Notes: a model not told the origin generated them from the sequence alone. Shown: positions 2,599 to 47,613, counted from the first letter of the stretch. The stretch is DNA of 64,000 nt from Alphaproteobacteria bacterium (GCA_045613285.1 JAZLAQ010000035.1:4670-68669); one strand, 5' to 3'. Numbers and translations are program-made.

Positions 2599-4242
2599 AT
2601 GACAAAATATGTATTTATATTGGGTGGGGTTGCCTCTTCTTTGGGAAAAGGAATCGCTTCAGCTGCAACAGGCAGTCTTTTAAAAGCGCGGGGGTATTCT
2701 GTTCGGATGCGAAAAATGGATCCCTATTTGAATGTGGATCCGGGGATTATGTCGCCTTATCAACATGGAGAAATTTTTGTGACGGAGGATGGTGCCGAAA
2801 CGGATTTGGATTTAGGACATTATGAACGTTTGGCTGGTGTGAACTGTCAAAAAACGGATAGCATATCCGGTGGACGAATCTATTATAATGTTATTCAAAA
2901 GGAACGACGTGGTAATTATTTGGGGGCAACAGTTCAGGCTATCCCTCATGTAACAAATGAAATTAAGGATTTTATCAAATCCGATTTACATGATGAAGAT
3001 TTTGTTTTATACGAAATCGGTGGAACGGTTGGGGATATGGAAGGTCTGTTGTTCTTGGAAGCCTTACGCCAATTTGCTAATGAAGTTGGTCGTCAAAATG
3101 TATGTGTCTTGTTTTTGACGTTGTTACCTTATATACCGACAGCCGGTGAATTAAAAACAAAGCCAACACAACATGCCGTTAAAACGTTGATGGAATCGGG
3201 AATACAGGCAGATATTCTGTTGTGTCGCAGTCAAGCCCCACTGGGGACGGATGAACGCCGGAAATTGGCTTTGTTCTGTAATGTTGAACCAGATGATGTT
3301 GTTATGGCTTTGGATGTGGATAATATTTACAAAATTCCTCTGACTTATCATCAGGAGGGATTGGATGTTCAGGTTTTAAAACATTTTGGTATGCTTGAAA
3401 GTGCACCGGAACCTGATTTATCTTTGTGGGAAAATATTTCAAAAGTTATTCAAAATTATGAAAAAGAGGTTCCCATTGTCGTTGTCGGTAAATATTGTGG
3501 ATTGTTGGAAGCATACAAGTCTTTACATGAAGCCATTATTCACGCCGGTATTGATACACAAACCAAAGTAAAAATAACATGGATGGAAGCTGAAGATTTA
3601 GAAAAACTATCTCAGGAACAGGTAAATGAAGCCTTAAAACCGTATGCCGGTGTTTTAATCCCCGGAGGGTATGGACCACGTGGTATTGAAGGGAAAATTA
3701 AGGCTATTCGATATGCCCGGGAACATAAGGTGCCTTTCTTTGGTATTGGGTTGGGTATGCAAATGTCCGTTGTGGAGGCTTGTCGCAATTTATTGGATAT
3801 GACAGATGCTGGTTCGGCAGAATTTGGAAATAACTGTACACCGGTGATTTCTCAAATGGTTATAACGGAAGAAAATGGTGTTCGACAAATCCATCAGGAT
3901 AATACTAATCCAAATGGTCCGTCCAGATTAGGAGCTTACCCGTGTGTTTTGAAAAAAGAAACATTAGCTTCTCAAATTTATGAAGGGGCAAAAGAAATAA
4001 AAGAACGTCACCGCCATCGTTATGAAATGGATATAAATTATGAACGGGCTTTGGCTGGGCAAGGTTTTATTGTATCCGGAAAGTCACCAGATGGGTTATT
4101 ACCGGAAATCGTTGAAATACCGATGCATCCTTTCTTTATTGCAGTTCAGTTCCAGCCCGAATTTACGTCCCGCCCCGGAAAGCCAAATCCGATTTTTAAA
4201 GCATTTATTAAGGCTTCTTTGAAACATAAATATTTGGTTTAA
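2599..4242 (+). CDS. pyrG: CTP synthase
   Basis: MTKYVFILGGVASSLGKGIASA N-terminus, glutamine amidotransferase C-domain (GYGPRGIEGK, HPFF); 547 aa. Confidence 0.95.
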   Translation: MTKYVFILGGVASSLGKGIASAATGSLLKARGYSVRMRKMDPYLNVDPGIMSPYQHGEIFVTEDGAETDLDLGHYERLAGVNCQKTDSISGGRIYYNVIQKERRGNYLGATVQAIPHVTNEIKDFIKSDLHDEDFVLYEIGGTVGDMEGLLFLEALRQFANEVGRQNVCVLFLTLLPYIPTAGELKTKPTQHAVKTLMESGIQADILLCRSQAPLGTDERRKLALFCNVEPDDVVMALDVDNIYKIPLTYHQEGLDVQVLKHFGMLESAPEPDLSLWENISKVIQNYEKEVPIVVVGKYCGLLEAYKSLHEAIIHAGIDTQTKVKITWMEAEDLEKLSQEQVNEALKPYAGVLIPGGYGPRGIEGKIKAIRYAREHKVPFFGIGLGMQMSVVEACRNLLDMTDAGSAEFGNNCTPVISQMVITEENGVRQIHQDNTNPNGPSRLGAYPCVLKKETLASQIYEGAKEIKERHRHRYEMDINYERALAGQGFIVSGKSPDGLLPEIVEIPMHPFFIAVQFQPEFTSRPGKPNPIFKAFIKASLKHKYLV

Positions 4243-4285
4243 AATTATTATTTTTTTCTAGACATCTCTTTCTTTTCGTGTTAGT

Positions 4286-6283
4286 ATGGCGAAAAAAGGA
4301 GGTGTCTGGATGTTTGGTTTATTGAAAAATGAACGGGGTGTGTCGGCCGTCATCATTATACAACGGATTTTTCTGTTTTGTATAACTTTTACGGTTTTGT
4401 TTATTATCGGGAATTGGTTTGTACGTGTTATGTTTTTTGATTCTGTTGCCGATTCTACGGTAAAAGAATTATACAGTCGGGCTATTGCTGCATCCAGTAC
4501 ATTGATTGCTGGGGATGTTGAATTATCTAACGGAACAATGGGTAATGTAACAAAAGAAGGCTTTCCTGTGCGGGTTTATCGGGTTAATAAAAATTTTTTT
4601 GAAATTACATTGTCAGGTATCCCTCATAAAGTTTGTCAGCATTTGATTGAAAAAGATTGGACTGTTCCGACCTCATTATACATAAATGGGACTTTAAATT
4701 TTAAAGACAAGAATGTTTGTCAAAAACAAAATATTATGTCTTTTGAATTTAGTACTGATTTAAATGAACATGTTTCGAATTCAGAAAAACCTTTCCGGTC
4801 TCATTGTCGATCAGATGCCGATTGTAATGGGTGTGAAGCTTGTTGGGGCGGATTTTGTCAGACATCCTGTAATGCTGGTGAAACGTGCGCTAAAACTATA
4901 GCGGGAAAAGATGTCTGTTGTTCAGAAAACAATAATATAGACGGGATTTGTTGCTCTTATATACAAGATGGTATGTGTTGTTGGGGGAGGGGAAAATGTT
5001 GTCCGATGGATAAACCGATTTTCCTTGAGAATGGCCAGTGTGTTGATTGTTATAGCCAACGGGTATTTTCTGTCGGTAATCCGCCATCTTTAGATACTTG
5101 TCAGGCCTTATGTCCTAATCGAGTTTTTTACGGTCAGGATTCTCTGTGCTACTTACCAATTTGCGGGAGTGGTGAGTTTATGGATATGAACGGAGATTGT
5201 TTATCTTGTCAAGTTGGAGGGGGATTTATGGTTTCTAAAGCTGAATGCAATAAATGCCCAAATCGCACTTATCGGGATGGTCTGTGTTATAATACATGTC
5301 CGGCAAACACTGTTCTTGATGAAAAAGGGAATTGTATATCTTGTAGTGCACCTGAAAGTTTTATCCCGGATAAAAAAGAAGAATGTCAATCTGTTTGTTC
5401 TCAAAGATACCTAAACGGAAAATATTGTGCATTGAATGAGTGTCCTGCTGATTTTATACCAGATAGAGATGGTTCGTGTCATTCTTGTAAAACATCAGGC
5501 GTAATCCCAAATGTCAGTAGTGAAAATTGTGCTTTGTGTGTCGGACGTGAAAATGGTGTGGAAGGCTGTTCTGTTGTTTGTCCAGAAGGTAGTTTTAAAT
5601 CAATTTATGGAGATTGTTATCCCTGTGAAACTCCCCTTGCAGTACCGACAAAACCAAATTCATTAGAGTGTTTATCTTGTCCGGAACGAATGATGTTGGA
5701 AAATTATTGTTTTGCGCCATGCTATTTAGGGTCTTTCCGAGATACATTTGGAGGATGTTATTCCTGTCAAAGTCTGGAAAGTCGATTGGTACGGGAAACT
5801 TCGGCTTGCCATGTTTGTCAGAATAGAAAAGTTCAGATTAAAAGTATCAATGGTCAAAATGAATTTTATTGCGGTTTAGCCTATTGCCCAGAAAATTATT
5901 TTGCTGATAAAAACGGTTCTTGTCAAGATTGTATGTCGGACCAGAGCTTTGAAGGTGTCAGTGAACAGGAATGTTTGAAATGTGCTAATCGTGTTTGGAC
6001 AGCTGTCGGTCAAAAGTGTCAGTTGCGATCAACCTGTAAAGAAGGTGAAATTATTGATGCTGACGGTAAGTGTCAATCTTGTACACAAGATACCTATGCT
6101 ATTTTTATGGAAGGTCGTATAGAAGAATGTGATAAGTGTGCAAATCGGTATAAATTTGGATCTTGGTGTCGGATGTGTCCGACTGATATTACCACATTGA
6201 AGGATAAAGCCGGATGTCAAAAATGTGGCGGAATTTGGGATAATCGGATAGCAAATTGTTCTTTGGCAGTCGCAGAGAAATAG
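4286..6283 (+). CDS. Cysteine-rich tandem-repeat protein with N-terminal hydrophobic anchor and pilin-like head domain; paralog of 58740..59870
   Basis: N-terminal TM segment, then a ~100-aa domain alignable to the pilin-like protein at 58740..59870 (…SGIPHKVCQHL vs …TKIPADVCEHI), then ~12 repeats of ~37 aa with 6 Cys each (DGxCxSC…ECxKCxNR…C…CP). Confidence 0.6.
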   Translation: MAKKGGVWMFGLLKNERGVSAVIIIQRIFLFCITFTVLFIIGNWFVRVMFFDSVADSTVKELYSRAIAASSTLIAGDVELSNGTMGNVTKEGFPVRVYRVNKNFFEITLSGIPHKVCQHLIEKDWTVPTSLYINGTLNFKDKNVCQKQNIMSFEFSTDLNEHVSNSEKPFRSHCRSDADCNGCEACWGGFCQTSCNAGETCAKTIAGKDVCCSENNNIDGICCSYIQDGMCCWGRGKCCPMDKPIFLENGQCVDCYSQRVFSVGNPPSLDTCQALCPNRVFYGQDSLCYLPICGSGEFMDMNGDCLSCQVGGGFMVSKAECNKCPNRTYRDGLCYNTCPANTVLDEKGNCISCSAPESFIPDKKEECQSVCSQRYLNGKYCALNECPADFIPDRDGSCHSCKTSGVIPNVSSENCALCVGRENGVEGCSVVCPEGSFKSIYGDCYPCETPLAVPTKPNSLECLSCPERMMLENYCFAPCYLGSFRDTFGGCYSCQSLESRLVRETSACHVCQNRKVQIKSINGQNEFYCGLAYCPENYFADKNGSCQDCMSDQSFEGVSEQECLKCANRVWTAVGQKCQLRSTCKEGEIIDADGKCQSCTQDTYAIFMEGRIEECDKCANRYKFGSWCRMCPTDITTLKDKAGCQKCGGIWDNRIANCSLAVAEK

Positions 6284-6374: not shown

Positions 6375-6462
6375 GGGGCGTTGGCAGAGTGGTAATGCAG
6401 CGGATTGCTAATCCGTCATCCCCTAAAGGGATGCAGAGGTTCGAATCCTCTACGCCCCGCCA
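6375..6462 (+). tRNA. tRNA-Ser (anticodon GCU), class II with long variable arm, CCA encoded
   Basis: Acceptor GGGGCGT/ACGCCCC, anticodon loop TTGCTAA, T-arm AGAGGTTCGAATCCTCT, long extra arm CCCCTAAAGGGATG. Confidence 0.9.
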
Positions 6463-46926: not shown

Positions 46927-47613
46927 ATGATCGAAATAATTTTGCTTGGATTTGTGCTTGGATTTTTAATACCGGTTACTGCTGGTCGTTTTGGTAAGGT
47001 TTTACCGGCAGACCCTGGTATGGTGTTATTGAAATTGTGGCATTCACCGCATTTCCCAAGAACAAATGATGTCTATCGGACACGATTATTACGAAAAAAA
47101 TGGATAAAACTTTGGCTTTATTCTGTTTTTTGGGGAAGTATTATGGCTATTCTTTTTGGTTTAACGCCTGTCTTGTTAAAACCGTCTATTCATTTATCAG
47201 CTTATTTTTTCTTCGTTATTATCGGTTTTTGTATTGTTGTTGATATTAAATATTTTCTATTGCCTGACTTTTTTACCATTCCGTTATTATTATTTGGTTT
47301 TTATGCTAGTTTATCAAGTGATGTACTGCTTCCTGATAACAGCATTTTTGGTGCATTTTTTGGTTATTTGATAGCTGTTATAGCTGTTTTACTGACCGGT
47401 TTTGTAAAACAATCCGAATTAGGATCCGGTGATGTAAAAATGATGACGGCATTAGGTGCGTGGTTGGGGATATCGGGATTAAATTATACACTTTTATTGT
47501 CTTTTTTCTTTTTTTCAATTCCGGCTTTTTTCTATGAACAAAAACGAGGTGCTTATGGACCGGCATTAGGAATTGCCGGTTTAATCACGTTCTTTATTAT
47601 TTATGCAAAATAA
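46927..47613 (+). CDS. Prepilin peptidase, A24 family (TadV/CpaA-like, lacking N-terminal zinc domain)
   Basis: Polytopic membrane protein with the second catalytic Asp motif GSGDVKMMTALGAWLG; 228 aa. Confidence 0.65.
   Translation: MIEIILLGFVLGFLIPVTAGRFGKVLPADPGMVLLKLWHSPHFPRTNDVYRTRLLRKKWIKLWLYSVFWGSIMAILFGLTPVLLKPSIHLSAYFFFVIIGFCIVVDIKYFLLPDFFTIPLLLFGFYASLSSDVLLPDNSIFGAFFGYLIAVIAVLLTGFVKQSELGSGDVKMMTALGAWLGISGLNYTLLLSFFFFSIPAFFYEQKRGAYGPALGIAGLITFFIIYAK

Follow-up and report, generated by a model that had tools for sequence, protein, structure and literature searches.

Modular pilins combine a pilin module with a grafted functional module and are probably exposed at the filament tip (PMC8179133). 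Among type IVb pilins, this build is found in the large minor pilins CofB (ETEC) and TcpB (V. cholerae), with beta-repeat and beta-sandwich domains as the grafted part, and PilB and PilC of S. sanguinis carry a vWA and a lectin module, respectively (PMC8179133). The second point of comparison is provided by the GspK/PilK/PilX-type caps, which comprise the pseudopilin GspK of type II secretion and minor pilins at the tip; the subunit that caps such tip complexes has no Glu5 (PMC10191384). Class III signal peptides end in Gly or Ala, and Glu5 is found 'often, but not always' (PMC10191384).

The gene described here lies in a 64,000-nucleotide stretch of alphaproteobacterial DNA, all of which is referred to below as the window. 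It encodes a pilin-like module (residues ~10–170) followed by a 15-Cys knot and 8.5 six-Cys repeats, and thus shares with CofB/TcpB and PilB/PilC the combination of a pilin module and a large C-terminal module, the type IVb proteins being the nearest; a tip location and ligand binding would be expected as in these proteins. On balance, we read the gene product as a type IV pilin-like adhesin of modular build that probably sits at the tip, and, as far as the sequence goes, a displayed adhesin appears a reasonable reading. The nature of the grafted part distinguishes the protein from the known modular pilins, and so do several other features. The gene lies outside any pilus operon, the +1 residue in the family is Arg, Lys or Val, the subfamily to which the window protein belongs often lacks Glu5 and has a basic residue within alpha1N, and the family is hugely expanded, to 868 clusters at 50% identity. 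The absence of Glu5 in a large modular subunit is shared with the GspK/PilK/PilX-type caps (PMC10191384), and the window subfamily, unlike its paralogs, is fixed in length and single per genome record (n=4). However, neither the sequence nor the fold matches the GspK alpha-domain, and the loss of Glu5 is limited to about half of the orthologs. Partner minor pilins of the GspI/J type were not identified.

Gene, Start Site and Composition

A mechanical ORF call confirmed the uninterrupted 665-aa ORF at 4286–6283 (plus strand) reported in the first-pass annotation, as well as its site between pyrG upstream (2599–4242, CTP synthase, 733 bits) and a tRNA-Ser(GCT) gene downstream (6375–6462). The true start is probably ATG 4310 (Met9) rather than 4286, giving a protein of 657 aa, because it is preceded at a distance of 7 nt by a GGAGG motif, the first ATG lies within a promoter-like site, and the NCBI copy (P0001) has 657 aa, with orthologs beginning at the equivalent position. 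Residues are nevertheless numbered here as in the longer ORF (Table 1). The protein contains 69 Cys, not the approximately 80 first estimated, which corresponds to 10.4% of its residues versus 1.6% across all long ORFs of the window. Pfam and NCBIfam scans at E≤10 gave zero matches, tblastn against plasmid and phage records gave none, and no tandem repeat was found in the gene at the DNA level. The C-terminus (...NCSLAVAEK) has no hydrophobic stretch and hence no membrane anchor.

Table 1. Coordinates of the Cys-rich gene, its parts and related genes in the window (residues in ORF numbering; a slash marks the putative cleavage site).
Feature	Coordinates	Strand	Basis or remark
Promoter-like site TAGACA-17-TAGTAT with TG	4259–4287	+	Consensus match only, putative
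Shine-Dalgarno GGAGG	4298–4302	+	Consensus match only, putative
Likeliest CDS, Cys-rich modular pilin-like protein	4310–6283	+	657 aa + stop
Leader MFGLLKNERG, hydrophilic	4310–4339	+	Ends in invariant Gly (G18); putative prepilin-peptidase site
Long N-terminal helix (alpha1-like), residues 19–74	4340–4507	+	AF2 helix H21–74; subfamily/canonical N-terminal comparison
Globular pilin-like head, residues 75–170	4508–4795	+	Conserved Cys117 and Cys145; FFEITL..VP..VC motif
15-Cys knot, residues 174–239	4805–5002	+	Cys positions; Cys invariant in orthologs
Eight tandem 6-Cys units, residues 240–631	5003–6178	+	Unit HMM; repeat-only AF2
Truncated ninth unit (residues 632–658, 3 Cys, WDNR motif), 7-residue tail and stop	6179–6283	+	
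Prepilin (type IV leader) peptidase, 228 aa, Peptidase_A24	46927–47613	+	PF01478, 54.7 bits vs 26.5 cut-off
Paralog, 376 aa, 7.4% Cys	58740–59870	-	Canonical class III-type N-terminus SESG/RSMVEMLGVLAIIGVISVGG

The N-Terminal Module

In the AF2 model of the window protein, the N-terminal helix spans 54 residues and packs against a small beta-sheet (strands 94–99, 104–113, 130–133 and 148–156; pLDDT 62–87 in the pilin-like region), in keeping with the pilin 'lollipop' fold, in which a long helix rests on an antiparallel sheet. The four best Foldseek matches of the model in the PDB are the type IV pilins PilS, PilA1, CofA and TcpA, with probabilities of 0.98–1.00 and E-values of only 0.03–0.04. 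Most relatives of the protein carry a canonical GRSMVEML prepilin N-terminus, and a profile of 32 diverse N-domains of this canonical family had 19 pilins as its sole matches at E<1, among them TcpA (6e-6), CofA (3.4e-5) and PilA (7e-4). The alignment to TcpA extends into the Cys motif of the head, F.I...V..C..L. Pfam matches of the same 32 domains were all weak (PilS_N 7.6e-7, Bundlin 1.3e-3, N_methyl in 17 of the 32 with a best E of 0.0034). The hydrophobic N-terminus, the head of about 100 aa and the pilin-like scaffold noted at first pass are thus all borne out by the predicted helix and sheet, the fold matches and the N-domain profile.

The link from the window protein to the canonical family is strong. 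Alignment of the two profiles with hhalign gave a probability of 100 and an E-value of 1.3e-41, the canonical alignment including two rows of the window subfamily; positions 3–250 of the subfamily profile matched GRSMVEML proteins at E 1e-60 to 1e-96, and the heads of the window protein and of its in-window paralog matched in BLASTP at E 5e-7. When the subfamily head profile alone was compared with the PDB, no pilin reached significance (best E 0.29), and the window protein had no match to N_methyl (PF07963/IPR012902) at E≤10; the same domain scored only 12 bits, versus a cut-off of 21.2, in the paralog and in a further relative, P0015. The first ~170 residues constitute a diverged type IV pilin module, nearest to the type IVb pilins (TcpA/CofA), and, as judged from these profile comparisons, the pilin homology of the window protein is transitive, running via the canonical GRSMVEML family.

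In the hhalign alignment, NERG/VSAV of the window subfamily falls on ELG/RSMVE of the canonical family, and the register relative to mature TcpA/CofA also places the cleavage position after the leader Gly, which is kept in all 15 orthologs. Following this site, the window protein reads VSAVIIIQRIFLFCITFTVLFIIG, in which Ile instead of Glu at +5 and Gln-Arg at +8/+9 break the hydrophobic run, before a hydrophobic segment of ~22 residues. Position +5 is E or D in 8 of the 15 orthologs and Glu5 has been lost in the other 7, including the window copy. The N-terminus of the paralog, RSMVEMLGVLAIIGVISVGG, fully displays the class III feature, a mainly hydrophobic run of 20–25 residues right behind the cleavage site, often with Glu at +5. 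The N-terminus of the window protein appears to depart from the classical class III signal, and it looks like an ordinary signal anchor too.

The Cysteine Knot and the Repeat Rod

The repeats had been thought to begin right after the head; instead, residues 174–239 form a separate knot, distinct from the repeat units, with the pattern C-x5-C-x2-C-x2-C-x4-C-x3-C-x5-C-x9-CC-x9-CC-x7-CC-x5-CC-P and four CC doublets. This knot is common to most members of the canonical superfamily. It was modelled by AF2 with a pLDDT of 54–75, and Pfam gave no match on it. Granulin has 12 Cys, with four CC doublets in the centre of the motif, and residues 195–239 (C-x5-C-x9-CC-x9-CC-x7-CC-x5-CC-P) resemble it in spacing only; there is no PF00396 match, and nothing else speaks for a granulin identity.

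The regular six-Cys motif described in the first-pass annotation (G.C..C ... EC..CPNR ... C...CP) is present, with the consensus P.G.F.D..G.C..C(x12–14)EC..CPNR(x6–9)C...C. A unit HMM built from 14 other family members matched eight times in tandem, with 34–47 bits each (i-E 6e-15 to 6e-11), and the Cys periodicity far exceeds chance. Rather than about 12 units of ~37 aa, as first proposed, there are eight complete units of 45–55 aa (mean 49; residues 240–293, 294–338, 339–386, 387–432, 433–479, 480–534, 535–584 and 585–631), followed by a truncated ninth. The six Cys and one Arg are invariant across the eight units in all 15 orthologs, and AF2 modelled the repeats alone as a rigid-looking rod with a pLDDT of 93 and a pTM of 0.75.

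A PDB sequence search with the full-family profile returned only non-significant zinc fingers, Spt4 (E 0.18) and the DnaJ Cys-rich domain (E 0.41). The PDB fold search likewise found no significant relative for the repeat, the best matches, all non-significant, being megalin, the Cys-rich region of IGF1R/insulin receptor, Pfs25 and CD40. The repeat is a well-defined domain with no counterpart in Pfam, NCBIfam or the PDB (sequence or fold), which agrees with its earlier placement outside the common bacterial families. Its occurrence in at least 868 protein clusters without a database counterpart merits the definition of a family.

Proposed Processing, Export and Display

The reading as a tip-located adhesin would involve the following steps. 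Sec would insert the protein so that its N-terminus stays in the cytoplasm, and the A24 peptidase of the window would cleave it after the leader Gly. A type IV filament would then present the cleaved protein, most likely at its tip, since a bulky grafted module and the loss of Glu5 would be expected in a subunit that caps or initiates the filament. The disulfide rod would project outward as an adhesin or ligand-binding arm, with the likely contact surface in the variable 12–14-residue loop that separates the first Cys pair of a unit from the second. All orthologs of the window subfamily have 649–659 aa and 8.5 units, versus 0–17 units in the paralogs, which suggests a conserved core role for the subfamily; the GRSMVEML paralogs would be the variable effectors.

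The window encodes an intact A24 prepilin peptidase (Table 1), a candidate processing enzyme for the leader; its two Asp motifs, VVDIKYFLLPD and GSGDVK, can be recognised, and no Cys occurs in its first 93 residues. The window and ten related loci (~207 kb in total) were screened for the dedicated polymerisation machinery through Pfam context and motif regexes, and neither an extension ATPase nor a platform protein nor the secretin typical of diderms was found. The single Walker-A match belongs to an ABC ATPase beside a MacB/FtsX-type permease. As no filament machinery was seen, assembly into a filament is something that we only infer.

These observations also bear on a pilin-derived envelope protein that does not enter a filament, an explanation which we regard as possible, though rather unlikely. 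Here the class III signal would have degenerated to a signal anchor and the protein, cleaved or not, would be tethered to the inner membrane, so that the 8.5-module rod spans the periplasm as a spacer, ruler or sensor and is not a surface adhesin. The loss of Glu5 in 7 of the 15 orthologs, window copy included, would fit such a protein, and so would the missing N_methyl match, the lack of filament machinery nearby, and the conserved Lys/Arg at +8/+9 followed by the ~22-residue hydrophobic segment, which is the arrangement of a positive-inside anchor. The constant length and unit number of all orthologs are also as expected if length matters. However, the Gly and the E-x-G motif of the leader are (near-)invariant while their neighbours vary, which suggests that cleavage is still selected, and the head is clearly homologous to that of the canonical pilin-like family. 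Moreover, the window encodes a prepilin peptidase, and pilins without Glu5 are already known in the form of tip caps (PMC10191384). If the protein proved to be tethered in this manner, it would show how a pilin becomes an ordinary membrane anchor. For the preferred tip adhesin, the conserved subfamily, part of which lacks Glu5, would be naturally suited for testing which properties a tip or initiator pilin requires, and the modular-pilin concept would be extended to a disulfide-rich, eukaryote-style rod.

Predicted Disulfide Bonding of the Repeat

In a set of 1,032 units, Cys3 and Cys5 are lost together (p 2.5e-15), as are Cys2 and Cys4 (p 4.8e-6), and no other pair is co-lost. Loss of Cys1 is associated with an absent upstream Cys (OR 5.3, p 1e-5), and the partner of Cys1 probably lies outside its own unit, at Cys6'. 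The numbers of Cys in the knot (15) and the repeats (51) become even only with a C239–C252 pairing. Taken from these patterns, the modules would be held by the disulfides Cys6'–Cys1, Cys2–Cys4 and Cys3–Cys5, approximately 34 in total, and the connectivity phased from Cys6' would be 1-2, 3-5, 4-6.

Because Cys are lost in pairs, the repeats point to disulfides and not to zinc sites. An array of zinc knuckles, in which each CxxC...CxxC quartet would bind metal and the rod would serve for metal binding or storage, seems to us highly improbable, and this identity was set aside on the co-loss evidence. The spacing of the repeat, C-x2-C-x13-C-x2-C, is a classic zinc-ribbon signature, the zinc fingers of Spt4 and the DnaJ Cys-rich domain were the sole PDB sequence matches, and one relative, P0005, shows a weak rubrerythrin-like match. 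However, none of the zinc-finger matches is significant, and Cys3 is co-lost with Cys5, outside the quartet, and Cys2 with Cys4, which is in line with independent disulfides rather than Zn(Cys)4. Some units persist with only Cys2 and Cys4, or without Cys3. In addition, the repeat module is always found behind an export signal, zinc ribbons being characteristically cytoplasmic.

Resemblance to Eukaryotic Cysteine-Rich Repeats

The repeat shares with the TNFR CRDs, whose modules are designated A1 and B2 (PMC2779652), and with the furin-like repeats of EGFR and the insulin receptor an elongated rod shape, modules of ~40–50 aa and, with the pairing proposed above, three disulfides per module. The first half-motif, C-x4-F-x7-C-x2-C, also resembles the TNFR signature. 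There are clear differences: the loop between the third and fourth Cys has 12–14 residues here versus 2–3 in TNFR, and, unlike in the TNFR and furin-like proteins, each unit has an invariant Arg (CPNR), the host is a bacterium and the carrier is a pilin. The connectivity of a TNFR CRD of the A1+B2 type is 1-2, 3-5, 4-6. The HMMs TNFR_c6, Furin-like, GCC2_GCC3 and TNFR_ELAPOR1 gave no match on the repeat units of the window protein, which lacks VSP and Paramecium_SA matches as well. The likeness to TNFR would be one of topology only and does not amount to membership. Of the furin/TNFR likeness first pointed out, an A1+B2-like topology would thus remain, without HMM matches on the repeat and with fold matches that are non-significant.

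Among 64 diverse relatives, Pfam matches were sporadic (Ank, VIT, Mucin2_WxxW, EGF_Teneurin), to which are added two members matching Furin-like (0.0064) and two matching TNFR_ELAPOR1 (2.6e-6). The TNFR_ELAPOR1 match in one of these, P0033, covers residues 96–124, lies outside the repeat units and is below the curated cut-off. VSPs have a C-terminal transmembrane anchor. Kinship with Giardia VSPs or Paramecium antigens, raised in the first-pass annotation, found no backing in the window protein, which has neither a PF03302 or PF01508 match nor such an anchor, and neither host mimicry nor a eukaryotic origin is supported, all named relatives being alphaproteobacterial MAG proteins.

It is very doubtful that the protein is a variant surface antigen (of the VSP, Paramecium or furin/TNFR kind) that derives from or imitates those of eukaryotes and was acquired by horizontal transfer for host mimicry: the CxxC richness with its C.P.G.F....G.C..C motif, the proposed 1-2/3-5/4-6 arrangement, the disulfide-module receptors among the best, non-significant folds, and the expansion of paralogs with variable unit number speak for it, but the repeat has no Pfam match in the window protein (E≤10) or the 64 relatives, the TNFR_ELAPOR1 match is off the repeat, the named relatives are alphaproteobacterial, the C-terminal membrane anchor is missing, and the CysRRep repeats show a different Cys pattern (bioRxiv 10.64898/2026.06.07.730663).

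Relatives and Genomic Context

An exhaustive search found 868 related clusters (50% identity), and every named one is a 'hypothetical protein' of Alphaproteobacteria MAGs. The relatives come from gut and rumen metagenomes, from which the obligate host association assumed at first pass does not follow. Fifteen orthologs with 39–48% identity keep every Cys invariant. The window subfamily has one copy in each of the four genome records found, and the family has several copies per genome. The N-terminal motif GRSMVEML was found in no paper in the literature. At least 104 of 167 relatives have a G[RK][ST][ML]xE[ML]L signal and approximately 30 have Sec or lipoprotein signals. The repeat always follows a class III pilin-type, Sec or lipoprotein signal, and it is therefore an extracytoplasmic module; as it also occurs behind Sec or lipoprotein signals without the pilin module, it is an independent one. 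The in-window paralog combines a homologous head, an EGF-like stretch and three repeat units (unit HMM 28, 18 and 17 bits), and NCBIfam gave nothing useful on it or on distant relatives.

A possible analogy is offered by archaea, where many functionally diverse extracytoplasmic proteins of a single organism have in common one highly conserved prepilin-type N-terminus, as in the present family; Szabo et al. reportedly described in 2007 the sugar-binding proteins of Sulfolobus as non-pilin substrates with class III signal peptides. In contrast to these archaeal substrates, the present family is bacterial, and its cargo consists of one type of repeat instead of solute-binding domains.

Modules carried by pilins have thus undergone a very large expansion into paralogs in poorly known, uncultured gut and rumen Alphaproteobacteria, and the family members are likely determinants of attachment to host, mucus, food particles or other microbes. 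A more speculative proposal, to which we give a low probability, is that the GRSMVEML proteins form an unrecognised, lineage-specific display system of these bacteria. A near-invariant class III/pilin module would be the general carrier of a new TNFR-topology disulfide repeat in rods of 0–17 units, with several paralogs in each genome and over 800 clusters in all, and the frequently Glu5-less subfamily of the window protein would act as the conserved cap or initiator. If true, such a system would be a bacterial counterpart of the variant cysteine-rich surface proteins of protists, the paralogs being presented on the fixed-length subfamily. No principle is overturned by either proposal, and the function is one that we infer.

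The genomic setting of the family is variable. There is no conserved gene context, and the Cys-rich gene is never beside pilus genes in the loci examined. The gene just before it is pyrG in the window, atpC in locus L001 and a tsaB-like gene in locus L008, and the gene of another relative, P0017, sits between parA/mipZ and pgm.

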